DNA of 64,000 nt from Eledone cirrhosa (taxonomy: Eukaryota): NCBI GenBank assembly GCA_964016885.1, contig OZ024764.1, forward strand, positions 4,836,001 through 4,900,000, read 5' to 3'. The translations under genes were made by a program, and so were the position numbers. The notes under the pieces were generated by a model, which was not told the DNA's origin, did not search any database, and saw nothing but the letters and a program-made list of their open reading frames with translations. Positions 23,788 through 58,733 of this stretch are shown piece by piece; the stretch's first letter is position 1, and each line of letters begins with the position of its first letter.

Positions 23788-23909
23788 ATATACATACATA
23801 CACACACTTGGTAACCACTGAGACAGGTTTTGTTCCTTACTAGTTCATTCCATAATTCGTTGAGTGAGTAATGTGTGCATATATATGATGATGATGATAT
23901 GTGTGTGTG

Positions 23910-32860: not shown

Positions 32861-34066
32861 TGCGAACAAATATATATATATATATATAAATTTAAAGGTA
32901 TAGTGCTAGGAAAAACAAATGACTAGACATGAAGTAGAGGTTAGATGAGAAAGATTTAATTAGTCTGTTCTTTAACTCGTTTCAGTACAACATCAGTCTA
33001 CGATACCTTTAAAATTATAAAGTAGAAACAATTATTATTATTCGTTATTATTATTATTGTTAAACTAATATCTAATATACACACACACATGTGCATTGTA
33101 TTTTCTGTCTGGCCCTTACTCACTCATCCACATATATGTCTGATAACCAACCTTGTAATTATAAGTAATTATATATTATATTATGTTATGTTTATTATTT
33201 TATATTGTAGTTATTGTACTATCGATCCTTATTACTAACATTATGATATGTTAAATTTTATATATCATGTAAGATGTTTATATTTTTGTACCATCATAAT
33301 TTTGGGTATTGTACAATTTATATTTTTTTTCTCACCTACTCTGTAACTCTATATGAATTGATTTGTTAACTTACATGCCATTATATATTATATATTATAT
33401 ATGTTCGGCGATATCCAATTTTAGCTGTCTAAATGGACATCGGCGATATCCAATTTTAGCTGTCTAAAATTGGATATCGCCGTGACATCTATATTGTTTG
33501 TGTAAATTAACCGGAGATTATCTATTATATAATATTATATAGTATATAATTGTATAGTTTATTATACATTATATGTGCTACTTATAATCATATCATATTA
33601 TTAACTCATGTATATTAGATATACGTATTATTATTATTATTATTATTTTTATTCCTATCATGCTTATTTATATTTAAACTCTTAATAAGGTTTAATTTGT
33701 GCTGTTAAAGATGGATATGTGTATTGATGTATGTGTATATGTGCGTACGTGTGCGTACATATATACATATGTATATTGTACCTTTTAATTTTTATTGTAA
33801 TTTTAATATTGTTACAAGTATATTATATTATATTATATTATATAGTATTATATATAATTCCCGCTCTATATAACCACCTTTGTTTAGCTCTAGGTTTTTT
33901 TTGCTTTGGACTATATTTGTAATATGGTTCTAAATGTTATACACCTCCTTAGTGATTTTTATTATATATTTTTACCCATAATCTTGCAATACTTTAGTGT
34001 ATGTACACTCCATATTCTTCGGAGTTTTCGGCTTGTATTGGCCGATAATACTTCTTGCTGTTTTAA

Positions 34067-34985: not shown

Positions 34986-35136
34986 CATATATATGTATAT
35001 ATATACATATATATATATAAAAGAAATAGGATTTCGCTTCAAGCATATCTTTATACAATATGTATAAATATTTCGTATCTCCAAAGAAATACGGTTTTAG
35101 GAAGCCTTAGCTCTGCAAACCCTGGGGAGCTAACGT

Positions 35137-35301
35137 CCTCTGGTGATGTCCAGCAGAAGCAAGGGGGACAACCGTCTATGCATTTCAGGCTTAACTGGCC
35201 ATCGTCAGGACAGTCCCTCCCACTGCTTGCGACTGCTGGCCAGTTAAGCGTGAAATGCATAGACGGTTGTCCCCCTTGCTTCTGCTGGACATCATCAGAG
35301 G
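35137..35301. repeat. 65-bp-arm inverted repeat; copies at 53843-54007 and 56600-56764
   Basis: 35137-35201 is reverse-complementary to 35237-35301 with 2 mismatches. Confidence 0.93.
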
Positions 35302-35417: not shown

Positions 35418-35450
35418 GAAAACCTGGTTTGAAACACAAAAGAAAGGGAT
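35418..35450 (+). CDS. Micro-exon 1 (33 nt, phase 2-2): KTWFETQKKG
   Basis: TTTTTCTCATTACAG|...|GTAAGT; paralogous flanks are conserved while the interior is divergent. Confidence 0.75.
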
Positions 35451-36489
35451 GTAAGTGTTACCTTAACATACTGTCTAACCATTGTTTAATCTGCTCCTCC
35501 CACTACCTCTCCCTTTAAACACACACACACATATATACCCCTATATATATATGAATACACACACACACATATATATATATATATACACATATATATATAC
35601 ATATATACAAGCGAGAGACGGCTTGCTGACCAATCTCGCCTTCAGTGGGACAAAACCGTCCAACCCATGCTAGTATGGAAGATGGACTTTAAATGATGAT
35701 CATATATACACACTGACACATATATATACACATATATATACGCATATATTTATATATATATATGAGTTCAAATCCGCCGAGGTTAACTTTGCCTTTCATC
35801 TTTACGAGGTCGATAAAATAAAGTACCAGTGGTGCACTGGGGTAATCGCTGGCCTTCTGCCAAAAGTAGAAACTATATTTATACATATATATAACCAAAG
35901 ATTAATATGGTTCGTTGATTACTCAACGAATACAGTTTTACAATAGATTAGAAGCACTCAACAGTGAAAGTTTTCCTGGAGTTTTTAATATTATTCAAAA
36001 TATTAACAAATGAAAAATATTCTCATAATCAAAATATATACTTTATTATATATATTTCAAAGGTATATGACATACCTCTACGGTCTTGATTATTCAATTC
36101 CAGTATTGGCAGTGACTATATATTTATAGGCAAAATGAATAATGAAAGAGTTGCAAGCCGTTAAAACATATCTTTATAAAGCTCTTACATATGTTATATA
36201 TATATATATATATATATCATCATCATCATTTTATGTCCGCTTTTCCCTGCTTGCAAGGGTAGGGCTCTCACCACCGGCCATGTTTTTCGTGGTCTTCCTC
36301 TACTGCGTCTTCCTTCTACTGGGATTTTTTAGCACCTCTTTACCCAGCGGTCATCCTCGATGCACATCACTTGTCCATACCATCTCAGTCTTCTCTCCTG
36401 CACATCACAACTTATCCCCAGTTTCTCTATCAACTCATCTATGCTCTTGTCGTTCACGCACATTGACACACACACACACATATAAGGGA

Positions 36490-36780
36490 TAACAAAATAT
36501 CGTTATAGGTAATCCAGGTAGAGGTTGTGAATACTCTGTATTGTGGTTAGTCTTAGTCTACAGCGTTGTTTGACTCAACAAGAGGTTTCCGTAGGTGGCA
36601 AGTATTTGAGTTCTCTTGAATTCCTATGTAAGTTTATCTTGGAGTAATAATATTGAAAGCGTGAAGAATAACATGGTCAACAGTACAAAAAAAGGTTTTT
36701 ATTTACAGTATTAACAATTGTTTCACTGATTAAGTTGTCTAAAAATTGCTGAACACTTGAAGCTGTGCCACTCAATTTTA
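36490..36780 (-). mobile_element. Possible Penelope-like (GIY-YIG) remnant; copy at 56045-56335
   Basis: Degenerate minus-strand frame containing TYIG; weak support. Confidence 0.3.
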
Positions 36781-37284
36781 AATATGTTGTTAGCTTAACT
36801 AGATCATCAGAATATTTATATATATATATACTACAAATTATGTCCATAGAACCATTTGATAAGATATATACACCATTTCCTCTCCCAATTAGCATAATCA
36901 ACCACACAAAAAATCAATTAGACCAGGCTATAAGATTAAAAGGCACCTATGATAAAATAGTAGATAAATAAAAGACAGCATTTCAATAGCATGTGGAAAT
37001 CAATTAAATATATCGTCAACCATACACAATTAGGTATAAAATTAAAGTTAGAAGAAAAAATGCATATACACATACCAGGATTACGTTTCTACCCTTTAGG
37101 GTTTCGTTCGCATTTGGAAATATACTATCAAGGATAAATTCGATATAAATTCTATAAATTTATCAAGGATAAATTTATAGTATATTGCTCTGATTATTTA
37201 ATTTATTAATTCATCATTGAGCCACATCGTGAATGGTTGCCAAAAACATATATATCTATGACTTTGTCTAGTTTGTGTATATGT

Positions 37285-37385
37285 AAATCTTTATATTGAT
37301 TGTTCCTTATGTAGCACAGCCTTTCAGATTCCATCTTTGCGCACAAGTCTACAGCAAGCTGGTTGAAGAGTACTCTTGCACGGTG
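37285..37385 (-). mobile_element. Helitron RepHel fragment
   Basis: LFNQLAVDLCAKMESERLCYIRNNQ resembles the Helitron motif LFQQFxVDxYAKIESERLxYIRxNQ. Confidence 0.7.
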
Positions 37386-38902
37386 GAACAGCAACGTAGT
37401 AAGTAAGGCAATCAAAGATATGAAGATGGGGAAGGCAACCGGTCCATCGGGTATAGCTGCCGAGATGCTGAAGGCATCTGGGTCTGTAGGTCACACTATA
37501 ACCACACGTATTGTTAACCCGTTAATACTAGAAGGTGTCATACCAAAAGATTGGTGCAGTAGCATCATTGTCAACTGTTACAAAAGTAAAGGTGATGCAC
37601 TAGATAGAGGAAACTATAGAGGTATAAAGCTGATGGACCAGGTCATGAAAGTAACAGAAAGAGTTATAGCACAGTTGATTAGGGACCGGGTGAAACTAGA
37701 CGAGATGCAATTTGGGTTTGTACCAGGAAGAGGCACCACTGATGCCCTCTTCCTTGTCAGGCAGTTACAGGAAAAGTACCTAGCTAAAAGTAAGCCACTC
37801 TACCTGGCATTTGTTGACCTTGAGAAAGCCTTTGACAGAGTTCCACGTGCTGTAATCTGGTAGGCTCTTAGAAAACTAGGAGTAGATGAATAGCTTGTGA
37901 AAGTGGTACAAGCCATGTATAGGGGAGCAGTCAGCAAAGTTAGGATTAGCAATGAGTATAGCGAGGAATTTAGCGTACAGGTTGGGGTCCACCAGGGCTC
38001 TGTTCTTAGGCCCCTCCTGTTCATCATTGTCCTGCAGGCAATAACGGAGGACTTTAAGACCGGATGCCCATGGGAACTCCTGTATGCTGATGACCTCGCA
38101 CTTATAGCTGAATCTATGGTAGAACTAGAGAAGAAATTCCAAACTTGGAAGCAGGGACTAGAAAGAAAGGGTCTCAAAGTCAACATGACAAAGACTAAGG
38201 TCCTTGTAAGTAGACGAGAAAACAGAACCCAGATCCCCTCAGGGAAATGGCCTTGCTCAGTATGTAGGAAAGGTGTAGGTAGGAACTCCATTCTCTGCCC
38301 CAAATGCAAACAATGAGTACACAAGAGATGTAGCGGGATCTCAGGAAGCTTAATTAAGAATGTAGGCTTCACATGCAGCAGCTGTGCTGGGACAGCAAGC
38401 AGCAAACAGCCACAGGAAACAAGTACCACCAATCTCTGGGAGGGCTCTGTAGAAACAGTAGACAGCTTCTGCTACCTAGGTGACCGAATTAGCAGCGGAG
38501 GTGGGTGTTCAGAAAGTACAATAACTAGGGTAAGAATGGGATGGAAGAAGTTTAGGGAACTACTATCACTGCTAGCTGCAAAAGGCCTCTCCCTCAAAAT
38601 GAAAGGCAGACTGTATGATGCGTGTATCCGAACAGCGATGTTGCATGGTAGTGAGACCTGGGCGCTGAAGGTGGAAGACTTACGTAGATTAGAGAGAAAC
38701 GAAGCCTGCGTAACAGTAATATACGCGAACGACAAAGCATAAATGAATTGAGAGACTGAGCATAAGAGGAATCAAATGCTGTGTGCAGGAGAGGCGGTTG
38801 CGCTGGTATGGACATGTGATGCGTATGAAGGATGACAGCTGCATAAAAAGTTGCAGAGCACTAGAAGTCGATGGAAACCACGGTGTGGGGAGACCCAAGA
38901 TG
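37386..38902 (+). mobile_element. RTE LINE RT and C-terminal region with stops
   Basis: NYRGIKL, FVDLEKAFDRVP, GVHQGS, LLYADD, Cys-rich finger, MLHGSETW. Confidence 0.93.
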
Positions 38903-40343
38903 AGGAGAGAAAGAGTGTGAGAGAGAGAGAGTGAGAGAAAGAGAGGGAGTGAAAGAGAGAAATAGAGGGATTGAGAGAGATACGTTAAAACAATAACAGA
39001 AGGTCTGACTGGAGAATTTACTTTAGAATTTTAAGAGAAAAGGGGAAGGTTTCAGACTTCTGGAATTCCTTCACGAAAATGTCCTATATATCTGGAACAC
39101 AAACTTCAAAAAAATGAGACAACCACTTAATAACCTATAGATCATGTGAGCCCACCAGCTAGATAGATTTCATTGTTACCAGAAGACAGAGTGACTGTTA
39201 TAAACACAATGTCCCTCCCTAGTGAAGAATGCACCTCCCAAAATACCTTAGAAGACAACCTGGAAGAAAAGAGTAGAGATCAAAATCAAAAGGTCTTAAA
39301 GTCAATTTGGTAAAGACTAAAGTTCTAGTAAGTAGAAAGGAAAACTCGGCCCAGATCTCTTCAGGTAAACTGTCCTGCTCAGTGTGCAGAAAAGGAGTAG
39401 GTAGAAATTCCCATCCTATGTCCCATATATATATCCTATGTCCCATATATATATCCTATGTCCCATATATACTGTGAGAGGATTTAGGCATAAAAGGGAT
39501 TAGATTCAGTGTGCAGGAGTGCGATTGTTTTGGCATAGACATGTGATGTGTATGAAGGGTGACAGCTGTATAAAAAGGTGCCGAACAAACAAAGTTGACA
39601 GAAACCGTGGAGTGGGCAGGTCTAGGAAGACTTGGGATGAGGTAAGGAAAGCTGACTTTGTACAATTACACCTAGCTAAGGCAATGACACAGGATGGTGA
39701 CCTCTGGCGCTATGCACAATTATAGAGGACTACATCCACAATCCACCAGACATTTTCCCTACCAACACCCCACACAAGTTCCCAAACCTCACCATAAAGT
39801 GGTCCCGCTGCAGCCATGACAAACGTGCCCAGTCCACACTGTACAGTGGTCTTGTAGGTGTCCTGCCAAAAATCAATATTGGGCCTTAAAACCTTGAGTC
39901 CCTTTTGTTCTGTGTATGAACATAAATAATTGTTTCTACTTTTGGCACAAGGCCAGCAATTATCCAGTGCATTACTGGTACTTTATTTTATCGACCCCGT
40001 AAGGATGAAAGGCAAAGTTAACCTCGGCGGGATTTGAACTCAGATCATACAGGGAGGTAACTATGCTTCAAAGCATGGCGTCCGACCCTCTACCGATACT
40101 GCCAATCCACCGCCTGAACATAAATAAATAATTGTTTCTACTTTAGGCACAAGGCCAGCAATTACCTAGTACATTACTGGTACTTTATTTTATCGACTCC
40201 GTAAGGATGAAAGGCAAAGTCAACCTCGGAGGGATTTGAACTCAGATCGGAAAGGGACGTAACTAAATAAATAATGTAATATATATATATGTATGTGTGT
40301 GTGTATCTATTTATATATTTAACTATATTTTTTGTAATCACAG

Positions 40344-40385
40344 GACTGATACAAAGGAGAGTACCGCTCTAGAAAAGAATGAGGA
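40344..40385 (+). CDS. Micro-exon 2 (42 nt, phase 2-2): TDTKESTALEKNE
   Basis: TTTTTTGTAATCACAG|...|GTAAGT; only phase 2 is stop-free. Confidence 0.78.
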
Positions 40386-40600
40386 GTAAGTTTTAGTTTT
40401 ACATACTATCTAACCATTATTCTATCTGTTCCTTCCCGTCTCTCTCTCTCTTATATATATATTTATATATAGTAAGATGTATTATTGGTTGTGTAAAACG
40501 GTCCAATAAATTTTTGTTAGCAATATTAAGTCCTCCACGCTTTTGTATATCTCCAATTCCATTCAAGGGAACAGCTAGATGATGTAAAACGGAGTATTTG

Positions 40601-40702
40601 TATCAAAATGAAAATCCAAAGGCAAGGTAAAATTTCCAATCATTTTAATCAGGTCGTGATTGAAATGATTGGAAATCTTACCTTGCCTTTGGATTTTCAT
40701 TT

Positions 40703-40707
<5 letters not shown>
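40601..40707. repeat. ~50-bp-arm hairpin; copies at about 47206-47300 and 58945-59050
   Basis: TATCAAAATGAAAATCCAAAGGCAAGGTAA...TTACCTTGCCTTTGGATTTTCATTTTGATA. Confidence 0.9.
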
Positions 40708-40770
<63 letters not shown>

Positions 40771-40789
40771 GACTCCTCTTATAAACCAC

Positions 40790-41205
40790 GTTGGCTATTA
40801 TGACTCTCTCTTTCCCTCTCTATGTTGGCTATTATGACTCTCTCTCTCTCCCTCCCTCCCTCTCTATGTTGGCTATTATGACTCTCTCTCTCTCTATGTT
40901 GGCTATAATGACTCTCTCTCTCTATGTTGGCTATAATGACTCTCTCTCTCTATCTATGTTGGCTATTATGTCTCTCTCTCTCTATCTATGTATGTTGGCT
41001 ATTATGTCTCTCTCTCTCTATCTATGTTGGCTAATATGACTCTCTCTCTCTCTATGTTGGCTATTATGACTCTATCTCTCTCTATGTTGGCTATTATGTC
41101 TCTCTCTCTCTATCTATGTTGGCTATTATGACTCTCTCTCTCTATTTATGTTGGCTATTATGTCTCTCTCTCTCTATCTATGTTGGCTATTATGTCTCTC
41201 TCTGT
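40790..41205. repeat. Composite minisatellite ATGTTGGCTATTATGA(CT)n; copies at 47340-47525 and 59100-59360
   Basis: Read directly from the sequence. Confidence 0.9.
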
Positions 41206-41519
41206 TCAAGCTTTATGAAGTTAGTTGAACATCTTCAAAGTCCTCCCATATTCGCCTTGTCTAATATGCGTTCTTGTACCTGATTATTTCCCCCAAATCT
41301 CCTGGGATGTTATAAACCATGATGGCTACCTATCTCACAATTTCTCTCCTGCCCACCCCCTCACACCACCATAGTCTATTCGACCAATCAAACCTCAGAA
41401 ACATGTCCCCACCCATTACCAACCCCAACAAACTCTGCCATTACTACTACTTCTACTTTTCTTCTAGCCCTTACCAGCCCCAACAAACCCTGACATTATT
41501 ACTACTATTGTCCTTCTAG

Positions 41520-42948
41520 CCATGGGCTGAGGATAAATGGGGCTACCCCAAATTAATAAATGAATATGAATCCGCGAGTTACCAAGCACCCATGCAAAGC
41601 TTTAATTCAGAGACAGGAAGCATACACACCCCACTGCAAAAATTCACCCTTTCCCACGAGTGGTGGCAAATGCCCAAAACTCCGAGTTGGAACCATCAAT
41701 GTAAGCACAATGAAAGGAAGAGCAGGAGAAATTGTAGAGATGCTAGAGCGAAAGAAAATTGATGTATGCTGTGTGCAAGAGACTAGATGGAGAGCAGAGT
41801 CCGCTGGAGTCCTTGCAGGCAGAAGTCAGTGCTACCAATTTGTCTGGGTAGCAAATGACAACAGGATGGGAGGTGTAGCTATCCTATTAGCTGACAAATG
41901 GGTAGATAAGGTAATCTCAGTGAACAGGGTGAATGCAAGAATAATGAAACTTGGACAAGTCCTGAATAAAACAATTGCCACAATAATATCAGCTTACGCA
42001 CCCCAATTGGGGTTGCCAGCTGACTATAGCGGGGAATTTAGTTTAGAGGTCGGTGTCCACCAGGGCTCTGTTCTTAGCCCACTCCTGTTCGTTGAAGTAT
42101 TGCAAGCAATAATGGAGGTGATTATGACCGGATACCCATGGGAACTCCTATATGTGGATCATCTCACACTTATAGCCGAATCTATGGTGGAACTATACTT
42201 GCTCAGTATGTAGAAAAGGAGTAGGCTGGCTGCAAAAGGCTTTCCCCTCAAAATGAAAAGCAGACTGTATGATGTGGGTATACGAATAGCAATGTTACAT
42301 AGTAGTGAAACCTTGGCGCCGTCTGTGGAAGACTTGCATAGATTAGAAAGAAAGGAAGCCTGCATGCTCCGATGGATGTGTAATAGTAATATACGCGAAC
42401 GGCAAAGCATAAATGAATTGAGAGAGTGACTGAGCATAAGAGGAATGAAATGCTGTGTGCAGGAGAGGATGTTGCATTGGACATGTGATGCGTATGAAGG
42501 ATGACAGCTGTATAAAAAGGTGTAGAGCAGTAGAAGTCGATGGAAGCCGTAGAGTGGGGAGACCCAAGAAGAGCTGGGATGAGGTGATAAAAGCCGACCT
42601 TACCCAGTTGCACCTCTCAAAGGCGATGACACAGGACCGTCACCTCTGGCATCAAGCAGTAATACAGAAGACCTGACTCCCCAGGGCTACAAGCGGAAGT
42701 TGAAGCGTATGCTCCCACCCTCTCCGACTGTACAGTGGACGTATAGGCGCCACAGACAAAAAGCACCCAGGACTCACTGTAAATGAGGTTGGTGTTAGGA
42801 AGGGCATCCAGCTGTAGGAATCAAGCCAGAATCAGTTCCTGTATGAGCAAGACAAGGTCAGCTGAACAGACACTGCCCACAACAGGACAACCCGTCTAAC
42901 CCATGCTAGCGTGGAAGAATGGACGTAAAACAGTGATGATGAAGATGA
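41520..42948 (+). pseudogene. Internally deleted RTE (APE N-terminus fused to RT core, C-terminus and 3' UTR); copies at 47845-49095 and 59677-60927
   Basis: GTINVSTM, CVQETRW and SAYAPQ are joined directly to GVHQGSVLSPLLF. Confidence 0.88.
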
Positions 42949-42950
42949 TA

Positions 42951-45190
42951 TATCATATATGCCAGTGTACAAGTTGACATTTGGAGCCTAAAAATATCTC
43001 TCCAAAACCAGGGGTCGACTTGTCTGCTGAATATAGTATGTTACCTTTACCACTGAGGGGTAAACAGTGAAACTGCCTGCCTAACACTTGTTGTACACCA
43101 CTTACCATAACTCTAGCAACCCACCACATTTATTTCTACTGAATCTCATATTTGTTAAGTTTAATGTAGAGATTATAGTAATATCAATGTCTTGCTGTAG
43201 CTTATAGGGTAGGTTACTGTAGGGTAGGTTACTGTAGGGTAGGATACTGTCTGGTAGGTTACCATAGGGTAGGTTACTGTAGGGTAGGTTACTGTAGGGT
43301 AGGTTACTGTAGGGTAGGTTACCATAGGGTAGGATAGTGTCTGGTAGGTTACCATAGGGTAGGTTACGATAGGGCAGGATACTGTAGGGTAAGTTACTGG
43401 AGGGTAGGTTACCATAGGGTAGGTTACCGTAGGGTAGGTTACCATTGGGTAGGTTATTATAGGGTAGGTTACCACAGGGTAGGTGACCATAGAATAGGTT
43501 ACTGTAGGGTATTTTACCATAGGGTATGTTACCATAGGGTAGGTTACCTTATGGTAGGTTACCTTAAGGTAGGTTACCATAGGGTAAGTTACCATAGGGT
43601 AGGTTACCTTAGGGTAGGTGACCATAGTGTAGGCTACCATAGGTTAGGTTCTGTATGGTAGGTTAGGTTACTATAGGGTAGGTTACCATAGGGTAGGTTA
43701 CGATAGGGTTAGTTACCATAGGGTAGGTTACCATAGCGTAGGTTACTATTGGGTAGGTTACCATAGGGTAGGTTACTGTAGGTTAGGTTACGTAGGGTAG
43801 GTTACCATAGGGTAGGTTGCCATAGAGTAGGTTATTATAGGGTAGGTTACCATAAGGTAGATTACCTCAGGGTATGTTACCATATGGTAGGTTACCATAG
43901 GGTAGGTTACTGTAGGGTAGGTTACCATAGTGTAGGATACCTTAAATTAGGTTACCACAGGAAAAGTTACCATATGGTAGGTTACTGTAGGTTAGGTTAC
44001 CATAGGGTAGGTTATCATAGGTTAGGTTACCAAAGGGTAGGTTACTATAGGTTGTTACCATTGGGTAGGTTACTGTAGGGTAACATAGGTTACCATAGTG
44101 TAGGTTAATATAACATAGGTCACCATAGTGTAGGTTACCTTAGATTAGGTTACCACAGGATAGGTTACCATATGGTAGGTTACTGTAGGTTAGGTCACCA
44201 TAGGGTAGGTTACTATAGGGTAGGCTACTATAGGTTGTTACCATAGGGTAGGTTACTATAGGGTAGGCTACTATAGGTTGTTACCATAGGGTAGGTTACT
44301 ATAGGTTGTTACCATAGAGTAGGTTACAATATGGTTGGTTACCATAGTGTAGGTTACTATAACATTGGTTACCATAGTGTAGGTTACCTTAATTTAGGTT
44401 ACCATAGGTTAGGTTACCGTATCGTAGGTTACTGTAGGTTAGGTTACAATAGGGTAGGTTACTATAGGGTAGGCTACCAATGATAGGTTATGATGGGTTA
44501 GGTTCCATAGGGTAGGTTACCACAGTATATGTTACCATATGGTAGGTTAGGTTACCATAGGGTAGGTCACCATAGTGTAGGTTACTTTAGATTAGGTTAC
44601 CATAGGGTAGGTTACCACAGGATAAGTTACCATATGGTAGGTTACTATAACATAGGTTACCAAAGTGTAGGTTTCTATAGGTTGTTACCATAGGGTAGGT
44701 TACTGTAAGGTAGGTTACCATAGGGTAGGATACTGTAGGGTAGGTTACCAGAGGGTAGGTTATTATAGTATAGGTTACCGTAGGGTAGGTTTCCATGAAG
44801 TAGGTGACCATAGGGTAGGTTACTATAAGTTAGGTTACCATAGGGTAGGTTTCCATGAAGTAGGTTACCACAGGGTAGGTTAACATAAATTAGGTTACCT
44901 TAGGGTAGGTTACCATAAGTTAGGTTACCATACGGTAGGTTACCATAGGTTTGTTAAGGTTAGGCTAGGCTGGTCTACACGGTGAGTTAAAACTCACTTG
45001 TGACTGTAGTGTTTTAGAAGAAGTGTCTTAATCTTTCGTGCACCACTAAATTTTTTAACTATTTCCCCTGAAACTGCCTTATTTTGGGGAGGTTATCTTA
45101 TCAATCGAATAGCGTCCTAAATCTAAATTACACCTCAGAATTTTAGGGGCCACACTATGTACCGGATAGACTTGTACACCGGCATATATA
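42951..45190. mobile_element. Non-autonomous pogo/Tigger-like TIR element with an internal 15-bp array; copies at 49098-50952, 60930-62825 and partial 52198-52770
   Basis: Left end TATCATATATGCCAGTGTACAAGTT; right end GACTTGTACACCGGCATATAT(GGTA), complete in copies 2 and 3. Confidence 0.7.
43204..44965. repeat. 15-bp G-rich minisatellite (GGTAGGTTACCATAG)n; also 49330-50725, 52198-52620, 61163-62600
   Basis: Read directly; it produces the spurious VTYPM / VGYHR repeat ORFs. Confidence 0.97.
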
Positions 45191-45399
45191 TATATGCAAA
45201 GAGAGCGAGAGAAACAGCGGGAGTGAGAGAGATACATTAAAACAATAACAGAGGTCTGACTGGAGAATTTACTTTAGAATTTTAAGAGAAAAGAGGAAGG
45301 TTTCAGACTTCTGGAATTCCTTCACGAAAATGTCCTATTTATCTGTAATACAAACTTCAAAAAATGAGACAACCACTTAATAACATATAGATCATGTGA

Positions 45400-46400
45400 G
45401 CCCACCAGCTAGATAGATTTCCTTGTTACCAGAAGACAGAGTGACTGTTATAAACACAAAGTCCCTCCCTAGTGAAGAATGCACCTCCCAACATACCTTA
45501 GAAGACAACCTAGAAGAAAAGAGTATAGATCAAAATCAAAAGGTCTTAAAGTCAATTTGGTAAAGACTAAAGTTCTAGTAAGTAGAAAGGAAAACAGGGC
45601 CCAGATCTCTTCAGGTAAACTGTCCTGCTCAGTGGGCAGAAAAGGAGTAGGTAGAAATTCCATCCTATGTCCCATATAGAAATGATGGGTACACAAAAGA
45701 TGTTGTGGGATCTCAGGAAGGCTAACAAAGAACGTAGCTTCTACATGTGGCCAGTGAACAGGGGCAGGAAATATCAAGAGCTCTCGGGTTACAATCTCCT
45801 TCAAATACCCGAAAGTCTCTGTAGAGGTGGTAGATAGTTTCTGTTACCTAGGTGACTAAATCAGCAGTGGAGTAGGGTGGTCCCAAAACTCAGTAACAAG
45901 AGTGAGATTAGATTGGAGAAAGTGCAGGGATCTACTACTACTGCTAACAACAAAAAGTTTTTCCCTCAAAATGAAGGGCAGACTGTATGATGCAGGTATA
46001 CAAACAACAATGTTGCACAGCAGCGAGACCTGGGCACTGTGTGTAGAAGATCTGTAAAGATTGGAAAGAAATGAAGCCTCCATGCTTCAATGGATGTGCC
46101 ATAGTAATATATGCAAATGGCAAAACATAAATGTACTGCGAGAGAAATTAGGCATAAGAGGGGTTAGATGCAGTGTGCAGGAGAGGGATTGTTTTGGTAT
46201 AGACATGTGATGTGTATGAAGGGTGACAGCTGTATAAAAAGGTGCCGAACAAACAAAGTTGACAGAAACCGTGGAGTGGGCAGGTCTAGGAAGACTTGGG
46301 ATGAGGTAAGGAAAGCTGACTTTGCACAATTACACCTCGCTAAGGCAATGACACAGGAGGGTGACCTCTGGCGCTATGCACAATTATAGAGGACCTGCCC
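45400..46400 (+). mobile_element. Decayed RTE fragment; copies at 39150-39730, 51470-52198, 57704-58078, 63350-64000
   Basis: GLKVNLVKTKVL, GVGRNSILCP and GRSRKTWDEV remnants. Confidence 0.85.
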
Positions 46401-46957
46401 TCATAAATCCACGAGCTGAGGCATATATCTAGTATGTAACACCTTCCCCACCATCATCCCTCCCAAACACCTTCACCCCTATAACTACATCCACAATCCA
46501 CCAGACATTTTCCCTACCAACACCCCACACAAGTTCCCAAACCTCACCATAAAGTGGTCCTGCTGCAGCCATGACAAATGTGCCCAGTCCACACTGTACA
46601 GTGGTCTTGTAGGTGTCCTGCCAAAAATCAATATTGGGCCTTAAAACCTTGAGTCCCTTTTGTTCTGTGTATGAACATAAATAATTGTTTCTACTTTTGG
46701 CACAAGGCCAGCAATTAACCAGTGCATTACTGGTACTTTATTTTATCGACCCCGTAAGGATGAAAGGCAAAGTTAACCTCGGCGGGATTTGAACTCAGAT
46801 CATACAGGGAGGTAACTATGCTTCAAAGCATGGCGTCCGACTCTCTACCGATACTGCCAATCCACCGCCTGAACATAAATAAATAATGTAATATATATAT
46901 ATATGTATGTGTGTGTGTATCTATTTATATATTTAACTATATTTTTTGTAATCACAG

Positions 46958-46999
46958 GACTGTTCCACTGCAGAGTTCCGCTAGAGGAAACAGTGACGA
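46958..46999 (+). CDS. Micro-exon 3 (42 nt, phase 2-2): TVPLQSSARGNSD
   Basis: TTTTTTGTAATCACAG|...|GTAAGT; paralog of 40344-40385. Confidence 0.78.
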
Positions 47000-49900
47000 G
47001 TAAGTTTTAGTTTTACACACTATCTAACCATTATTCTATCTGTTCCTTCCCGTCTCTCTCTCTCTTTATATATATATATTTATATATACTAAGGTGTATT
47101 ATTGGTTGTGTAAAACGGTCCAATAAATTTTTGTTAGCAATATTAAGTTCTCCACGCTTTTGTATATCTCCAATTCCATTCAAGGGAACAGCTAGATGAT
47201 GTAAAAAAATCCGAAGGCAAGGTAAAATTTCCAATCATTTTAATCATGTCGTGATTAAAATGATTGGAAATCTTACCTTCCCTTCGGATTTTCATTTTGA
47301 TATATATATATATATATGACTCTGTCTCTTATAAACCACGTTGGCTATTATGACACTCTCTCCAACATAGAGAGCTATGTTGGCGATTATGACTCTCTCT
47401 CTCCCTCTCTATGTTGGCTATTATGACTCTCTCTCTCTCTATGTTGGCTATTATGACTCTCTCTCTCTCTATGTTGGCTATAATGACTCTCTCTCTCTAT
47501 CTATGTTGGCTATTATGTCTCTCTCTGTTCAAGGTTTATGAAGTTAGATGAACATCTTCAAAGTCCTCCCATATTCGCCTTGTCTAATATGCGTTCTTGT
47601 ACCTGATTATTTCCCCCAAATCTCCTGGGATGTTATAAACCATGATGGCTACCTATCTCACAATTTCTCTCCTGCCCACCCCCTCACACCACCATAGTCT
47701 ATTCGACCAATCAAACCTCAGAAACATGTCCCCCACCCATTAAAAACCCCAACAAACTCTGCCATTACTACTACTTCTACTTTTCTTCTAGCCCTTACCA
47801 GCCCCAACAAACCCTGACATTATTACTACTATTGTCCTTCTAGCTATGGGCTGAGGATAAATGGGGCTACCCCAAATTAATAAATGAATATGAATCCGCG
47901 AGTTACCAAGCACCCATGCAAAGCTTTAATTCAGAGACAGGAAGCATACACACCCCACTGCAAAAATTCACCCTTTCCCACGAGTGGTGGCAAATGCCCA
48001 AAACTCCGAGTTGGAACCATCAATGTAAGCACAATGAAAGGAAGAGCAGGAGAAATTGTAGAGATGCTAGAGCGAAAGAAAATTGATGTATGCTGTGTGC
48101 AAGAGACTAGATGGAGAGCAGAGTCCGCTGGAGTCCTTGCAGGCAGAAGTCAGTGCTACCAATTTGTCTGGGTAGCAAATGACAACAGGATGGGAGGTGT
48201 AGCTATCCTATTAGCTGACAAATGGGTAGATAAGGTAATCTCAGTGAACAGGGTGAATGCAAGAATAATGAAACTTGGACTAGTCCTGAATAAAACAATT
48301 GCCACAATAATATCAGCTTACGCACCCCAATTGGGGTTGCCAGCTGACTATAGCGGGGAATTTAGTTTAGAGGTCGGTGTCCACCAGGGCTCTGTTCTTA
48401 GCCCACTCCTGTTCGTTAAAGTATTGCAAGCAATAATGGAGGTGATTATGACCGGATGCCCATGGGAACTCCTATATGCGGATCATCTCACACTTATAGC
48501 CGAATCTATGGTGGAACTATACTTGCTCAGTATGTAGGAAAGGAGTAGGCTGGCTGCAAAAGGTTTTCTACTCAAAATGAAAAGCAGACTGTATGATGTG
48601 GGTATACGAATAGCAATGTTACATAGTAGTGAAACCTGGGCGCCGTCTGTGGAAGACTTGCATAGATTAGAAAGAAACGAAGCCTGCATGCTCCGATGGA
48701 TGTGTAATAGTAATATACGCGAACGGCAAAGCATAAATGAATTGAGAGAGTGACTGAGCATAAGAGGAATGAAATGCTGTGTGCAGGAGAGGATGTTGCA
48801 TTGGACATGTGATGCGTATGAAGGATGACAGCTGTATAAAAAGGTGTAGAGCAGTAGAAGTCGATGGAAGCCGTGGAGTGGGGAGACCCAAGAAGAGCTG
48901 GGATGAGGTGATAAAAGCCGGACTCACTGTAAATGAGGTTGGTGTTAGGAAGGGCATCCAGCTGTAGGAATCAAGCCAGAATCAGTTCCTGTATGAGCAA
49001 GACAAGGTCAGCTGAACAGACACTGCCCACAACAGGACAACCCGTCTAACCCATGCTAGCGTGGAAGAATGGACGTAAAACAGTGATGAAGATGATATAT
49101 CATATATGCTAGTGTACTATTTGACATTTGGAGCCTAAAAATATCTCTCCAAAACCAGGGGTTGACTTGTCTGCTGAATATAGTATGTTACCTTTACCAC
49201 TGAGGGGTAAACAGTGAAACTGCCTGCCTAACACTTGTTGTACACCACTTACCATAACTCTAGCAACCCACCACATTTATTTCTACTGAATCTCATATTT
49301 GTTAAGTTTAACGTAGAGATTATAGTAATATCAATGTCTTGCTGTAGCTTATAGGGTAGGTTACTGTAGGGTAGGTTACTGTAGGGTAGGATACTGTCTG
49401 GTAGGTTACCATAGGGTAGGTTACTATGGGGTAGGTTACTGTAGGTAGGTTACCATAGGGTAGGTTACTGTAGTGTAGGTTACTGTAGGGTAGGTTACTA
49501 TAGGGTAGGTTACTGTAGGGTAGATTACTCTAGGCTAGGTTACCATAGGGTAGGTTACTGTAGTGTAGGTTACCATAGGGTAGGTTACCAGAGTAGGTGA
49601 CCATAGGGTATGTTATTATAGGGTAGGTAACTGTAGGTTAGGTTACTATAGGGTAGGTTACCATAGTGTAGGTTACCTTATGGTAGGTTACCTTATGGTA
49701 AGTTACTATAGGGTAGGTTACCATAGTGTAGGTTACCTTATGGTAGGTTACCTTATGGTAAGTTGCTATAGGGTAGGTTACCATAGGGTAGGTTACCTTA
49801 CGGTAGGTAAGAATAGGGTAGGTTACCATAGGTTAGGTTACTGTAGGGTAGGTTACCATAAGGTAGGTTACTGTAGGGTAGGTTAACATAGGATAGGTTA

Positions 49901-52789
49901 TGTAGGGTAGGTTACCGTAGGTTAGGTTACTGTAGGTAGGTTACCATAGGGTAGTTTACCGTAGGTTAGGTTACTGTAGGGTAGGTTAACATAGGGTATG
50001 TTAGCATAGGGTTGGTTACCATAGGTTAAGTTCCTATAGGTTGTTACCATATGGTAGGTTACTGTAGGGTAGGTTGCTATAGGGTAGGTTATCGTAGAGT
50101 AGGTTACCATAAGGTAGGTTACCGTAGGGTAGGGTATCATAGGATAGGTTACCATAAGGCAGGTTACCATAGAGTAGGTTACCTTAGGGTAGTTTACTAT
50201 AAGATAGGTTACCATAGTGTAGCTTACCATAGGGTAGGTTGTTACTATAGGCAAGGTTACTATAGGGTGGGTTACCATAGGGTAGTTTATAATATGGTTG
50301 GTTAACATAGTGTAGGTTACTATAACATAGGTTACCATAGTGTAGGATACCTTAGATTAGGTTACCATAGGGTAGGTTACTACAGGATAGGTTACCATAT
50401 GGTAGGTTACCACAGGATAGGTTACCATAGGTTAGGTTAGCAATGGGTAGGTTACTATAGGTTGTTACCATAAGGTAGGTTACTGTATGGTGGGTTACCA
50501 TAGGGTAGGGTACCATAAAGTAGGTTATTATAGTGTAGGTTACAATAGGGTAGGTTTCCTTAGGATAGGTAACCATAGGGTAGGTTACTATGGGGTAAGT
50601 TACCATGAAGTAGGTTACCATAGGGTAGGTTAACATAAGCTAGGTTACCTCAGGGTAGGTTACCATACCATAGGGTAGGTTACCATACCATAAAGTAGGT
50701 TACCATAGGTTTGTTAAGGTTAGGCTAGGCTGGTCTACTCGGTGAGTTAAAACTCACTTGTGACTGTAGTGTTTTAGAAAAAGTGTCTCAATCTTTCGTG
50801 CGCCACTAAATTTTTTAACTATTTCCCCTGAAACTGCCTTATTTTTGGGGGTCATCTTATCAATCGAATAGCGTCCTAAATCTAAATTATACTTCAGAAT
50901 TTTAGGGGCCGACCTATGTACCGGATAGACTTGTACACCGGCATATATGGTATATATATATATGCATGGAGGCACATGGCTTAGTGGTTAGAGCATTGGT
51001 CATGCAATCGAAAGGTTGTGAGTTCAATTCTCAGACCGGGTGATGTGTTGGTTCCTTGAGCAAGACACTTTATTTCACATTGCTCCAGTTTACTCAGCTG
51101 TAGAAATGAGATGATAGGGACTGGGGTCCCTATCATTCCACTGCAAAGTGGTCGTGGAGGTGCCATGGCAAAAAAAGCACCTAGCACTCACTGTAAATGA
51201 GGTTGGTGACAGGAAGGGCATACAGCTGTAGAAATCAAGCCAGAATCAGTTCCCGTCCCACCCTTGCAAGCAGGGAAAAGTGGACGTAAAATGAAATGAT
51301 GAAAGAGAGATAGAGAGAAAGAGAGGGAGTGAGAGAGATACATTAAAACAATAACAGAAGGTCTGACTGGAGAATTTACTTTAGAATTCCTTCACGGAAA
51401 TGTCTTATTTATCTGTAACACAAACTTCAAAAAACAAGACAACCACTTAATAACCGATAGATCAAGTGAGCCCTCCAGCTAGATAGATTTCATTGTTACC
51501 AGAAGACAGAGTGACTGTTATAAACACAAAGTCCTTCCCTAGTGAAGAATGCACCTCCCAACATACCTTAGAATACAACCTGGAAGAAAAGAGTATAGAT
51601 CAAAATCAAAAGGTCTTAAAGTCAATTTGGTAAAGACTAAAGTTCTAGTAAGTAGAAAGGAAAACAGGGCCCAGATCTCTTCAGGTAAACTGTCCTGCTC
51701 AGTGGGCAGAAAAGGAGTAGGTAGAAATTCCATCCTATGTCCCATATAGAAATGATGGGTACACAAAAGATGTTGTGGGATCTCAGGAAGGCTAACAAAG
51801 AACGTAGCTTCTACATGTGGCCAGTGAACAGGGGCAGGAAATATCAAGAGCTCTCGAGTTACAATCTCCTTCAAATGCCCAGAAGTCTCTGCAGAGGTGG
51901 TAGATAGTTTCTGTTACTTAGGTGACTAAATCAGCAGTGGAGGAGGGTGGTCCAAAAACTCAGTAACAAGAGTGAGATTAGATTGGAGAAAGTGCAGGGA
52001 TCTACTACTACTGCTAACTACAAAACATTTTTCCATCAAAATGAAGGGCAGACTGTATGATGCAGGTATACAAACAACAATGTTGCACAGCAGCGAGACC
52101 TGGGCACTGTGTGTAGAAGATCTGTAAAGATTGGAAAGAAATGAAACCTCCATGCTTCAATGGATGTGCCATAGTAATATATGCAAATGGCAAAACATAG
52201 GTTACCATTGGGTAGGTTACTGTAGGGTAGGGTACCATAGGGTGGGTTACCATAGGGTAGGTTACTGTATGGTAGGTTACATTTCGTTAGGTTACTGTAG
52301 GGTAGGTTACCATAGGGTAGGTTACCATAGGGTGGGTTACCATAGGGTAGGTTACTGTAGGGTAGGTTACCATAGGGTAGTTATGTAGGGTAGGTTACCA
52401 TAGTGTAGGTTACTGTAGGGTAGGTTACCATAGAGTAGGATACTGTAGGGTAGGTTACCATAGGTTAGGTCACTGTAGGGTAGGTTACCATAGGGTAGGT
52501 TATTATAGGGTAGGTTACCATAGGTTAGGTTACTATAGGGTATGTTACCATAGGGTAGGTTACTATAAGGTAGGTTACCATACCATAGGTTAGGTTACCA
52601 TATGTTTGTTAAGGTTAGGCTAGGCTGGTTTACTCGGTGAGTTAAAACTCACTTGCGACTGTAGTGTTTTAGAAGAAGTGTCTTAATCTTTAGTGCGCCA
52701 CTAAATTTTTTAACTATTTCCCCTGAAACTGCCTTATTTTTTGGGTGTCGTCTTATGAATCGAATAGTGTCGTATAGGACTATCTGGCA

Positions 52790-53712
52790 TGTTTTCTATG
52801 GCTGGATGCCCTTCCTAACACCAACCACGTTTACAGTGTGGGGACTGGGAGGTTTTCACCATGTTAACTACACGGCCAATTTACAGCGTGGACTGTGTGT
52901 TTTATTGTCATGACACCTACACAACCTCATTTATTTAGGACTGGATGTTGTGTGACCAACATAATTTTACAGAGATGGGGGTGGGAGTAGTGGGGTGGGG
53001 GCGTATATTTGGTTAAGAGGTGCCTACTGACTGTAGGTTTCGCTTTGTACTTAGGCAAGGGTGGTCTTCTGTATTACTGCGTAGCGCCAAAGATCTCGGT
53101 TCAGTGACATTGTCTTGGAGAGGTGTAAGTGTGTGAGATCGGAATTTATCAATTCGTCCCAGGGTTTTCTGGGTCTGCCTACTCCGTGGCTACCATTTAT
53201 TTTGATCGCCCTGCACTTTTTTATACAGCTGTCGTCTTTCTTGCGCATCACGTGACCATACCAACGTAGTCTTCTCTCGAGTAAACAACATCTGATCCCT
53301 CTTATTCCTAATTTCTCACTTAGTTCATTTATGCTTTGCCGTTCACGTATATTACTATTACACATCCAGCAGAGCATGCAAACTTCATTCCTCTCCAGTC
53401 TGCGTATATCCTCTGCACACAATGCCCAAGTCTCACTGCCATGTAACATTGTTGTTCGTATGCAGGCATCATACAGCCTGCCTTTCATTTTTAGAGAGAA
53501 CCCTTTAGCGGCCAATCGTACAATGAAAAGAGCGTCTGTGATACTTTTACCTGACACAAACCCAAACTGCATTTCATCTAGATCAATTCTCTCTCTGATT
53601 AGTTGCGCTATTACTTTTTCTGTGACCCTCATGAACTGGTCAATTAATTTAATGCCTCTATAGTTTCCCCTATCTAGGGCATCTCCTTTACCCTTGTAGC
53701 AGTTAATGATGA
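52790..53712 (-). mobile_element. Internally deleted RTE with 3' UTR
   Basis: ORF 53051..53764 carries RTE motifs. Confidence 0.88.
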
Positions 53713-54123
53713 TGATATATATATAAAAGAAATAGGATTTCGCTTCAAGCATATCTTTATACAATATGTATAAATATTTTGTATCTCCAAAGAAATACGG
53801 TTTTAGGAAGCCTTAGCTCTGCAAACCCTGGGGGGCTAACGTCCTCTGGTGATGTCCAGCAGAAGCAAAGGGGACAACCGTCTATGCATTTCAGGCTTAA
53901 CTGGCCATCGTCAGGACAGTCCCTCCCACTGCTTGCGACTGCTGGCCAGTTAAGCGTGAAATGCATAGATGGTTGTCCCCCTTGCTTCTGCTGGACATCA
54001 CCAGAGGCCTTGAAACCCTAAGTCCCTTTTGTTCTGTGTATGAACAGAAATAAATAATGTAATATATATATATGTATGTGTGTGTATCTATTTATATATT
54101 TAACTATATTTTTCTCATTACAG

Positions 54124-54153
54124 GAACACCACTAATTTCTCCAAAACAGTCAC
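54124..54153 (+). CDS. Micro-exon 4 (30 nt, phase 2-2): NTTNFSKTV
   Basis: TTTTTCTCATTACAG|...|GTAAGT; one codon shorter than its paralogs; two N-X-S/T sequons. Confidence 0.75.
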
Positions 54154-54714
54154 GTAAGTGTTACCTTAACATACTGTCTAACCATTGTTTAATCTGCTCC
54201 TCCCTCTACCTCTCCCTTTATACACACACACACATATATACCCCTATATATATATGTATACACACACACACACAAATATATACACATATATACATATATA
54301 TATACACACATATATATACATATATACAAGCGAGACACGGCCTGCTGACCAATCTCGCCTTAAGTGGGACAAAACCGTCCAACCCATGCTAGCATGGAAG
54401 ATGGACTTTAAATGATGATGATATATACACACTGACACATATATATATACATATATATATACACATATATATACGCATATATTTATATATATATATGAGT
54501 TCAAGTCCGCCGAGGTTAACTTTGCCTTTCATCTTTACGAGGTCGATAAAATAAAGTACCAGTGGTGTACTGGGGTAATCGCTGGCCTTGTGCCAAAAGT
54601 AGAAACTATAATTATATATATATAACCAAAGATTAATATAGTTCGTTGATTACTCAACGAATACAGTTGTACAATAGATTAGAAGAACTCAACAGTGAAA
54701 GTTTTCCTGGACTT

Positions 54715-54986
54715 TTTAATATTAACAAATGAAAAATATTCTCATAATCAAAATATATACTTTATTATATACATTTCAAAGGTATATGACATACCTCTAC
54801 GGTCTTGATTCTTCAATTCCAGTATTGCAGTCACTGCCAATACTGGAATTGAAGAATCAAGACGGTAGCGCTATGTCATAATCATATATTTTGTCTGATG
54901 AGGACGTACTGAAAAAACAACAATATATATAATATAGTATATATTTTGATTATGCGAATATTTTTCATTTGTTAACATTTTGAATA

Positions 54987-54990
<4 letters not shown>
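54715..54990. repeat. Imperfect palindrome (Penelope-like terminus) containing CTGATGAG..GAAA at about 54895-54915
   Basis: TATGACATA..TCTTGATTCTTCAATTCCAGTATTG / CAATACTGGAATTGAAGAATCAAGA..TATGTCATA plus outer AT-rich arms. Confidence 0.75.
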
Positions 54991-55056
<66 letters not shown>

Positions 55057-55122
55057 AGGTAAAATTAATAATGAAAGAGTTGCAAGCCTTTAAAACATAT
55101 CTTTATAAAGCTCTTACATATG

Positions 55123-55165
<43 letters not shown>

Positions 55166-55999
55166 TATATATATATATATATATATATCATCATTATCAT
55201 TTTATGTCCGCTTTTCCCTGCTTGGAAGGGTTGGGCTCTCACCACCACTGGCCATGTTTTTCGTGGTCTTCCTTTTACTGGGATTTTTTAGCACCTCTTT
55301 ACCCAACGGTCATCCTCGATGCGCATCACTTGTCCATACCATCTGTGTTCTCTCCTGCACACCACAACTTATCCCCAGTTTCTCTCTCAACTCATCTATG
55401 GTCTTGTCGTTCACGCACATTGACACACACACACACACACATATATATATTAATTCTATTGACTGATTAATAGCTCTTGTTAATTTTAAAACCATTCTGT
55501 TGAGAGCTTAATTCGTTTTGTGATATTCTGCAATTTTGCAATAACACACATACTGAATGCATCCGCCAAAACTAAGGGTTGCCCCCCCTCCCCCCCCTGT
55601 GAAGCCCCACGTGGGTTTTGATAACGGTCAGTCCTTGGCTTAGCACTGAACTAAAAGCCTGTTGAGAAAGTGACTTCCTTGTTCGATCATCATACCAAAA
55701 GCTTAACATTATTTGTCTAAGTAGACAGTACTTGATTTAGGAGTTGCAGAAACCCAATACTGGATATTACCAACCTTCCAGGGGTCCGGGTATAATTTTC
55801 CATCATATTTTATTTGTTTTACTCGAATTACTTGGTCGTGTCAATGGCTGTGCGGATAATTGTTTAACCATCGTCTCAGTGTGTTTGGCCTTTTAACTTA
55901 TGTTGTTGCTCTAGTTCACTAGCTTCTATGGAGCGCTTGCCACACATCTCGGAAGTTGTTTTTCGTTAATTTCCAATAGCAGAAATGCAATTCTCGCTA

Positions 56000-56037
<38 letters not shown>

Positions 56038-56878
56038 GTATAAGGGATAACAAAATATCATTATAGGTAATCCAGGTAGAAGTTGTGAATACTCTGTATT
56101 GTGGTTAGTCTTAGTCTACGGCGTTGTTTGACTCAACAAGAGGTTTCCGTAGGTGGCAAGTATTTGAGTTCTCTTGAATTTCTATGTAAGTTTATCTTGG
56201 AGTAATAATATTGAAAGCGTGAAGAATAACATGGTCAACAGTACAAAAGAAGGTTTTTATTTACAGTATTAACAATTGTTTCACTGATTAAGTTGTCTAA
56301 AAATCGCTGAAAACTTAAAGCTGTGCCACTCAATCTACTATATATATTGGAAGTGGTCGGACGTTGTATATTTAAGTAAATAAGTAGGTGTAGTCGGATA
56401 AACGTCGAAACGGCTTGGTAGAATGCAGCGAAAATTTACACAGTTATGCAGAATTGTAGCAGTTAATGATGATATATATGTAAAAGAAATAGGATTTCGC
56501 TTCAAGCATATCTTTATACAATATGTATAAATATTTTGTATCTCCAAAGAAATACGGTTTTAGGAAGCCTTAGCTCTGCAAACCCTGGGGGGCTAACGTC
56601 CTCTGGTGATGTCCAGCAGAAGCAAGGGGGACAACCGTCTATGCATTTCAGGCTTAACTGACCATCGTCTGGACAGTCCCTCCCACTGCTTGCGACTGCT
56701 GGCCAGTTAAGCATGAAATGCATAGACGGTTGTCCCCCTTGCTTCTGCTGGACATCACCAGAGGCCTTGAAACCCTAAGTCCCTTTTGCTCTGTGTATGA
56801 ACAGAAATAAATAATGTAATATATATATATGTATGTGTGTATCTATTTATATATTTAACTATATTTTTCTCATTACAG

Positions 56879-56911
56879 CACCAAACCATCTACCAAGTAC
56901 GAGAATATTAT
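56879..56911 (+). CDS. Micro-exon 5 (33 nt, phase 2-2): TKPSTKYENI
   Basis: TTTTTCTCATTACAG|...|GTAAGT; paralog of 35418-35450. Confidence 0.75.
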
Positions 56912-58691: not shown

Positions 58692-58733
58692 GACTGATAC
58701 AGAGGAGGGTACCGCTCCAGAAAATAATGACGA
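58692..58733 (+). CDS. Micro-exon 6 (42 nt, phase 2-2): TDTEEGTAPENND
   Basis: TTTTTTGTAATCACAG|...|GTAAGT; paralog of 40344-40385. Confidence 0.78.

Follow-up and report, generated by a model that had tools for sequence, protein, structure and literature searches.

An array of 103 microexons with exon-limited divergence on a neprilysin-like gene of Eledone cirrhosa

Introduction

The VSG, VLR and chicken immunoglobulin (Ig) type genes are donor-cassette conversion systems, and snake-venom PLA2 genes are grouped with conotoxin genes for having introns more conserved than their exons. Dscam carries exons of 130–160 nt that encode parts of extracellular Ig domains and are mutually exclusive, and that study reported no conversion among them (PMC3236188). 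The micro-exon genes (MEGs) of schistosomes encode secreted proteins and are described as restricted to flatworms; in VAL-6 a microexon stretch is joined to a conventional domain (PMC4350168). Most of the inactive neprilysin-like proteins of Drosophila (Nepl) are secreted (PMC8223033). A neprilysin homologue occurs in a transcriptome of octopus anterior salivary and digestive glands (PMC12607849), with no link to the genes treated here. We describe a locus that shares traits with several of these systems: a tandem array of microexons on a gene of the M13 (neprilysin) family, G1, which begins in a 64,000-nt stretch of Eledone cirrhosa DNA (the window; positions 4836001–4900000 of contig OZ024764.1, labelled C25 below, in a 3.0-Gb genome). 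G1 is one of four paralogues (G1–G4) on C25.

Results

C25 was read from 4.836 to 5.46 Mb. It contains 103 cassettes, all on the plus strand, between 4,871,418 and 5,399,532, a 528-kb array in which 49 cassettes are of type A (27–78 nt) and 54 of type B (42 nt) at spacings of 995–10,020 nt; four further A copies lack the acceptor region. Three cassettes of each type lie in the window (Table 1). A length of 3n combined with a GT donor is kept in 99/103 cassettes, the remaining four having lost the donor. Phase-2 stops occur in none of the 55 distinct exon sequences, compared with 41/55 and 21/55 in the other two frames, and no stop is created at any of the 102 consecutive cassette joins. Joined together, the 99 intact cassettes would encode 1,307 amino acids, with T, E, N, S, K and D prominent among them and with 22 motifs of the YxxPhi type (counted without a control). 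The type-A exons are G-poor (8.7%).

An earlier note on the window had described three of its microexons as diverged almost to randomness between near-identical flanks. Their coordinates and sequences were correct on re-reading. Cassettes 1 and 5 match at 12/33 positions without gaps (17 matches with gaps), and cassette 4, at 30 nt, is one codon shorter; the 300-nt flanks of cassettes 1 and 5 are 96–98% identical. Among the three type-A pairs of the window, the 40 nt before the acceptor are the same throughout (40/40), with 6–9 differing sites in the upstream 300 nt and 1–3 in the downstream 60 nt. Over 820 pairs from 41 type-A cassettes, the mean difference was 0.39 in the exon versus 0.017–0.026 in the flanks. 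Divergence is restricted to the exons, which are real coding microexons, and flanks as diverged as the exons, one of the two observations named by the earlier note as fatal to its picture, were not found. The other, intermediate alleles, was found in part: exons are linked by intermediates of 1–7 differences across the full array. Twelve matches in 33 are indeed near the random expectation from exon composition (~0.30, ~10/33), but near-randomness overstates the case, since such intermediates place the three exons of the window at the ends of a continuum and they are not random inserts. Conservation is partial over the final 11–15 nt of a type-A exon (diversity per site 0.00–0.56 in the last 12 nt).

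Cassettes were paired with their nearest relative by 1.8 kb of flank (three cassettes without a partner omitted), a choice that lowers flank values; unmasked microsatellites raise the B values. The 33 nearest-flank A pairs showed 127 exon mismatches versus 3.8 expected, together with eight length changes. B pairs below 1.5% flank divergence showed 5 mismatches versus 7.2 expected (25 pairs); at greater flank distance there were 14 B pairs, of which several are cross-family, with 105 mismatches versus 14.5. In 17 A pairs chosen for divergent exons, with tandem repeats masked, the distal flanks (1–5 kb) differ by 0.6–1.3% and there is no rise near the exon, giving an unbiased exon/flank ratio of ~20–30. 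Cassette 5 and its nearest-flank partner at C25:5297063 differ at 2/33 exon and 2/1800 flank positions. Exon distance grows with flank distance: exons are identical in 12/20 pairs below 0.3% flank divergence and in 1/11 pairs at 0.3–0.8%. Cassette 1 has 0/33 differences from two G2 copies at 0.3% flank divergence, and the last cassette differs at 5/33 positions between G1 and G2 at 0.36%. Broken copies are static, with the four acceptor-less exons identical at 0.3–2.4% flank divergence and three donor-lost exons identical at up to 0.38%.

The 18 close A pairs carry 19 nonsynonymous and 10 purely synonymous single-base changes, the latter at 3–8 times the flank expectation (1.2–3.5 expected, p = 5e-7 to 0.003). 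In close B pairs, 27 of 29 single changes are nonsynonymous and 2 synonymous (p = 0.03).

The paralogues are 96–99% identical over the introns and exons of c8–c9. Nevertheless, the exon encoding the membrane anchor shows 31/98 (G3) and 33/98 (G4) differences plus gaps versus 12/200 and 9/194 in its flanks, and exon c17 is strongly diverged between near-identical flanks. Exon-limited divergence therefore also occurs in ordinary single-copy exons and is not special to the microexons. Flank divergence at the anchor exon is slightly higher than elsewhere between G1 and G3 (5–6% versus 1.5%). Across 13 ectodomain exons compared between G1 and G3, at least 39/911 nonsynonymous sites differ versus 34/2312 flank sites (p = 5e-6, ~3 times the flank rate), and synonymous sites (5/244) do not differ from the flanks (pN at least 0.043, pS 0.020, flank 0.015).

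Single-nucleotide polymorphisms (SNPs) in the flanks of A cassettes form a mosaic. Of 946 non-CpG flank SNP pairs, 173 fail the four-gamete test, and failures outside the hairpin described next lie 30–111 nt apart, including +19/+49, −16/+19 and −92/−16. On this evidence, short-range exchange between flanks has been frequent. A hairpin with a ~70-bp stem precedes 49/49 A cassettes and 4/54 B cassettes, those four being the most divergent B exons. All 40 hairpin copies scored, out of 1056 candidates, belong to G1 or G2. The DNA between hairpin and exon is not hypervariable. A genome search with the 21-nt interior of cassette 5, one of the 55 distinct exons, found a single occurrence at up to 1 mismatch and no outside donor.

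We examined which gene the array belongs to. The exon 13.8 kb past the last cassette (C25:5413283) starts in phase 2 and encodes a hydrophobic transmembrane anchor, and M13-like exons follow, reaching at least C25:5.629 Mb, so that G1 exceeds 760 kb; all G1 exons examined are open. A match to PF05649 was found in 1/10 G1 exons scanned (E = 0.0099) and matches to PF01431 in 3/3 C-terminal exons (one of G1, two of G3) at collinear positions 30–49, 99–117 and 175–202; each exon-wise match falls under the Pfam curated cut-off, and their order is collinear. The zinc-site exon of G1 can be aligned to ECE-1. A single N-terminal hydrophobic anchor is thus followed by the M13 N and C domains in order, as in the M13 fold. 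The HExxH motif of active neprilysin is absent in G1 (HKIFH; the zinc exon at C25:5618 kb is assigned to G1 by strand and order across a satellite of >30 kb) and in G3 (HQIFH), and G2 and G4 have HEIFH. The first base of the catalytic Glu codon is G, A or C among genes that are 95–98% identical (C25:5618, 7167, 7538 and 25339 kb), from which two independent inactivations, in G1 (K) and in G3 (Q), are predicted. G1 has the substrate motif NAY/FY as VNAFY, G1 and G3 have ENIADLGA (the ENIAD motif, with Ala for the second Gly of ENIADxGG), and G3 has LLFW in place of CxxW. By the features listed for Nepl (PMC8223033), G1 is predicted to be an inactive neprilysin-like protein.

With transmembrane and M13 exons downstream, the array would encode the N-terminal tail, which is probably cytoplasmic given the type II topology of M13 proteins. 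The A cassettes resemble by eye the basic exon just before the anchor in G3 and G4, which makes a cytoplasmic-tail coding role for the array most likely. Basic pairs after the anchor in G1 (KR) and G3 (RRK) might serve as shedding sites.

Among the paralogues, G2 is a 97–99% duplicate with four cassettes and a duplicated 5′ piece holding two more. This piece repeats the 5′ end of G2, with its candidate promoter exons and cassettes 1 and 2, ~52 kb upstream at C25:7.26–7.33 Mb, and could be an alternative promoter. G3 has at least one cassette, immediately before the anchor, and G4 at least five B-like and two A-like cassettes; G3 upstream of 7.48 Mb and the G4 cassette region were sampled, so these counts are minima. 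A profile search of the genome with PF01431 gave nine matches, on contigs C3 and C24, the diverged G1–G4 exons not being among them. The matches at C24:7.5–7.8 Mb and on C3 belong to more conventional M13 genes, a possible source lineage of the G1–G4 family. Protein searches with exon c4 gave only two matches by phmmer among 1.84 billion representatives, both unrelated repeat proteins, and none in the Atlas at 0.9; exon c8 found no match among longer proteins, which is weak evidence.

Transcription was approached through sequencing runs, none of which is labelled RNA; run X4 was taken as RNA solely because it joins exon c2 to exon c3 at a GT..AG junction, which is absent from the DNA-like run X1. 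A 150-nt X4 contig spans the anchor exon and runs 28 and 11 letters past its two splice sites. If the record's coordinates are in its own orientation, the 28 letters equal the 31-mer-graph prediction where G3 and G4 transcripts merge, and the 11 letters equal the suffix common to the last cassette of G2 and five G1 cassettes, including the last. This arithmetic on contig ends, which uses lengths and not letters, suggests that it is the exons ending in KKL that splice to the anchor exon, and likewise suggests transcription of G1. Many cassettes being included together (up to 1,307 amino acids) or variably skipped seems rather probable, and a choice of one cassette in 100 doubtful. Twelve duplex tests for docking/selector pairing on three candidate segments gave none that convinced (two at p 0.02–0.04, one of these caused by a microsatellite), and at a minimum of 995 nt the spacing is not too short in the manner of mutually exclusive splicing.

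Several further observations concern the array. Five 78-nt A exons (C25:4952553, 4968128, 4985029, 5066424 and 5306123) resemble a 30-nt exon with a 48-nt in-frame extension, itself highly variable. Use of a GT lying 4 nt downstream would give the donor-lost cassettes at C25:4902087, 5229117 and 5252286 a length of 57 nt (3n). Three higher-order units ~21.8 kb apart at C25:5.114–5.18 Mb, with 0–1 differences per 1,800 nt of flank, could be very recent duplications or assembly inflation. Cassette 1 shares a core with the 42-nt A-like exons of G4 (C25:25152 kb), apparently, by eye, with a compensated frame shift. Downstream, an intron of G1 is filled by a 46-nt satellite of >30 kb (C25:5458393 to beyond 5490000), which is similar to the acceptor of the exon that follows and has a short version in G3; a candidate M13 exon near C25:5462168 was rejected as part of it.

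Table 1. Features of the window, in window positions
Feature	Position	Strand	Remarks
Candidate first (5′ untranslated) exon, GT donor at end	22965..23090	+	Sequence upstream of G3 matches at 90%, collinear
Candidate 37-nt untranslated exon (AG...GTGAGT)	23827..23863	+	94% match in G3; splice signals
Candidate start-codon exon, low confidence	32898..32933	+	92% match in G3, identical in G2
Inverted repeat, ~70-bp stem, 110–280 nt upstream of type-A exon 1	35135..35301	.	Fold −151 kcal/mol (210-nt stretch)
Cassette 1, type A, 33 nt, phase 2	35418..35450	+	KTWFETQKKG; opens the array
Cassette 2, type B, 42 nt	40344..40385	+	TDTKESTALEKNE
Cassette 3, type B, 42 nt	46958..46999	+	TVPLQSSARGNSD
Hairpin copy preceding cassette 4	53841..54016	.	
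Cassette 4, type A, 30 nt	54124..54153	+	NTTNFSKTV
Hairpin copy preceding cassette 5	56598..56773	.	
Cassette 5, type A, 33 nt	56879..56911	+	TKPSTKYENI
Cassette 6, type B, 42 nt	58692..58733	+	TDTEEGTAPENND; 6-nt intronic deletion after donor

The candidate start exon has an ATG at 32929 followed by AA and GT, the phase-2 end that the cassettes require; it also has an out-of-frame ATG at 32919 (ACG in G3) and a weak acceptor. Positions 30350–30750 were rejected as a first exon, being mostly dispersed repeat, and the AG...GTAAGT elements at 36595 and 56153 were rejected for a phase-2 stop. Degenerate 15-nt satellite blocks at 43115–44960, 49340–50720 and 61400–62600 have been duplicated together with cassette units, and positions 14966–16115 hold an inverted pair of LINE fragments (533 nt, 89% complementary, 84 nt apart).

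Discussion

On balance, we favour birth and death of exons combined with conversion of the flanks and diversifying selection on the exons. Two small phase-2 exons of the G1 tail would have been duplicated in tandem into the 103 cassettes and four broken copies, type A descending from the basic exon just before the anchor and type B from another founder exon. Unequal crossing-over and short-tract conversion would keep the spacer DNA young and uniform (0.3–2.5%), and exon variants would escape homogenisation because selection favours different tail peptides. Once two exons differ, heterology would halt exchange tracts, so that substitutions, in-frame indels and probably patchwork exchange could build up inside the exon, with stops and frameshifts purged. 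The product would be a type II membrane protein with an M13/neprilysin fold and Lys in place of the catalytic Glu. Selection-protected exons in homogenised flanks are favoured by the mosaicism of the flanks, the nonsynonymous excess in the family, the broken copies that stayed unchanged and the slightly higher divergence of the flanks around the anchor exon. Two proposals of the earlier note are combined here. Extreme selection gains from the ectodomain excess over flanks but is unlikely to suffice as sole explanation; homogenisation of introns by conversion, backed by the four-gamete failures outside the hairpin and by an opsin-like precedent, stands together with selection.

Several observations weigh against this combination. 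The 17 masked A pairs have no halo beside the exon, differing by only 0.1–0.8% within 600 nt of it. Close A pairs have a pN/pS of 0.65 overall rather than a value above 1, which gives no sign of positive selection on the A exons themselves, and separate selection on every one of 49 nearly redundant cassettes is hard to envisage. For the ectodomain, pN compared directly with pS is not significant (p = 0.13), and the 100-nt flanks used there contain constrained splice signals. Part of the four-gamete signal lies inside the hairpin, where arm-to-arm repair could mimic it, and when 29 distinct A exons were put through a three-sequence mosaic test, no signal survived correction. Finally, the variants in the spliced contigs of X4 are those of G2, so that expression of G1 is supported only indirectly.

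Locally raised mutation ranks next, and we consider it rather unlikely. The A exons would mutate ~10–30 times faster in the germline than adjacent DNA, guided by the hairpin, with selection removing only stops and frameshifts. The hairpin could act through breaks at a cruciform that are repaired in an error-prone way, or by making the pre-mRNA double-stranded and so recruiting a mutator. Targeted mutation is kept in consideration because synonymous sites are also in excess, with pN about equal to pS in A exons. Absence of a halo (5–10 kb of collinear 99.5% identity around divergent exons) and an excess of transversions in A exons (21:30 versus 437:339 in flanks, p = 0.04) point the same way, as does the last cassette of G1 compared with that of G2. 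The hairpin cuts both ways. It marks all A exons and the most divergent B exons, and 23 close B pairs without it have 3 mismatches versus ~7 expected; yet this contrast amounts to only about two independent lineages, the hairpin-bearing cassette 1 matches both G2 copies, hairpin-bearing donor-lost copies differ at 0/53 positions at 0.38%, and the DNA from hairpin to exon is quiet. Moreover, the transmembrane exon and c17 diverge likewise with no hairpin in the aligned flanks, the more distant B pairs also exceed the flank rate, and the G-poor composition of A exons argues against fixed A-to-I edits. The boldest version, which we find improbable, is a germline mechanism raising mutation or micro-recombination 10–30 times inside hairpin-marked, spliced-in microexons and feeding a library of ~100 tail cassettes on a dead neprilysin, a variable recognition or signalling molecule of a cephalopod-like invertebrate.

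A reading by point mutation alone, in which ordinary changes come under very strong positive selection once each recent duplication has occurred, is unlikely; the flanks would then just be young and would need no homogenisation. The mostly nonsynonymous changes in ectodomain and B exons, the static broken copies and the growth of exon distance with flank distance all agree with it, but it leaves the 3–8-fold synonymous excess and the four-gamete failures unexplained and requires rate ratios of 20–30.

Cassette replacement, another proposal of the earlier note, is very unlikely. Exon interiors would be copied from donors elsewhere, or the array would be a store of silent donors that serve one expressed site, in VSG/VLR fashion, a picture that suits the sharp exon edges, the patchwork look of some exons by eye and the mere four cassettes of G2; it is at odds with the intermediates, with splice sites and frame kept in 99/103 cassettes and with the single genomic occurrence of the cassette 5 interior, the one exon searched. 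An assembly artefact, or chance splice-like motifs in satellite, is scarcely credible, for although certain 21.8-kb units show no difference in 1,800 nt of flank, so that copy number could be inflated, there are 55 distinct exons with a frame-specific lack of stops, homologous cassettes in three paralogues and an RNA-like contig running over the transmembrane exon past both splice sites.

As to function, a weak inference that we offer tentatively is that the protein acts at the cell surface without catalysis, binding peptides or serving as a decoy, in a tissue driven by conflict (reproductive or immune); the length of its tail and the Tyr/basic motifs would tune trafficking or signalling.

Comparison with known systems

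In the literature searched, outside which most subscription papers and supplements lie, we found no description of such an array and no M13 protein with a tail of tandem exons. The host gene resembles M13 peptidases (neprilysin, ECE-1) and Drosophila Nepl in its single N-terminal anchor, NAFY, ENIAD and PF05649/PF01431 matches, and the young family mixes members with active and inactive motifs as Nepl does; it departs from them in HKIFH of G1, in LLFW instead of CxxW in G3 and in keeping the anchor, most Nepl being secreted (PMC8223033).

With Dscam the array shares dozens of duplicated, frame-compatible exons in one gene, birth and death, and high divergence of paralogous exons (PMC3236188), as well as the tandem arrangement of paralogous exons of one phase common to Dscam-type arrays. 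Unlike those of Dscam, its exons are 27–78 nt long, encode a tail and are separated by kilobase spacers that are 97–99.9% identical, with no docking/selector signal in the three segments tried. Its ~100 paralogous microexons exceed the "dozens" reported for Dscam arrays, and their product probably lies on the side of the membrane where it would not be expected, on a pseudo-enzyme. Small symmetrical exons, raised dN/dS, repeat-rich loci and possible variation by skipping recall the schistosome MEGs (PMC4350168); here, however, the microexons derive as paralogues from two exons in a gene for a membrane pseudo-peptidase, conventional M13 exons and an anchor follow where a MEG codes for a secreted protein mostly through small symmetrical exons, and no homology is claimed.

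As in conotoxin genes, introns are more conserved than exons, Dn and Ds are both raised in the variable exon and indels come in triplets (PMC3862624). Conotoxins vary between genes, in a secreted mature peptide, whereas variation here is between cassettes of one gene, in the tail and anchor, and we found no evidence that G1 is a toxin gene. The "peak of divergence" of red and green opsins likewise has introns homogenised by gene conversion around an exon kept divergent by selection, but involves two genes and few residues (PMC3924837), compared with ~50 cassettes, ~40% divergence and no visible halo here. Separate donors for the variable segments, as in donor-cassette systems, were not found for the one exon searched. 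The locus offers an unusually clean test of the question raised by conotoxin and venom genes, whether exons outpace introns by selection with conversion or by targeted hypermutation: with ~50 fast and 50 slower cassettes, broken copies, copies that carry or lack the hairpin and a sister gene of four cassettes side by side, the models are directly separable by pedigree, sperm or population reads. The locus is an M13-fold gene, not an active neprilysin, that is Dscam- and MEG-like in architecture and conotoxin- and opsin-like in its pattern of divergence, and a member of none of these systems.

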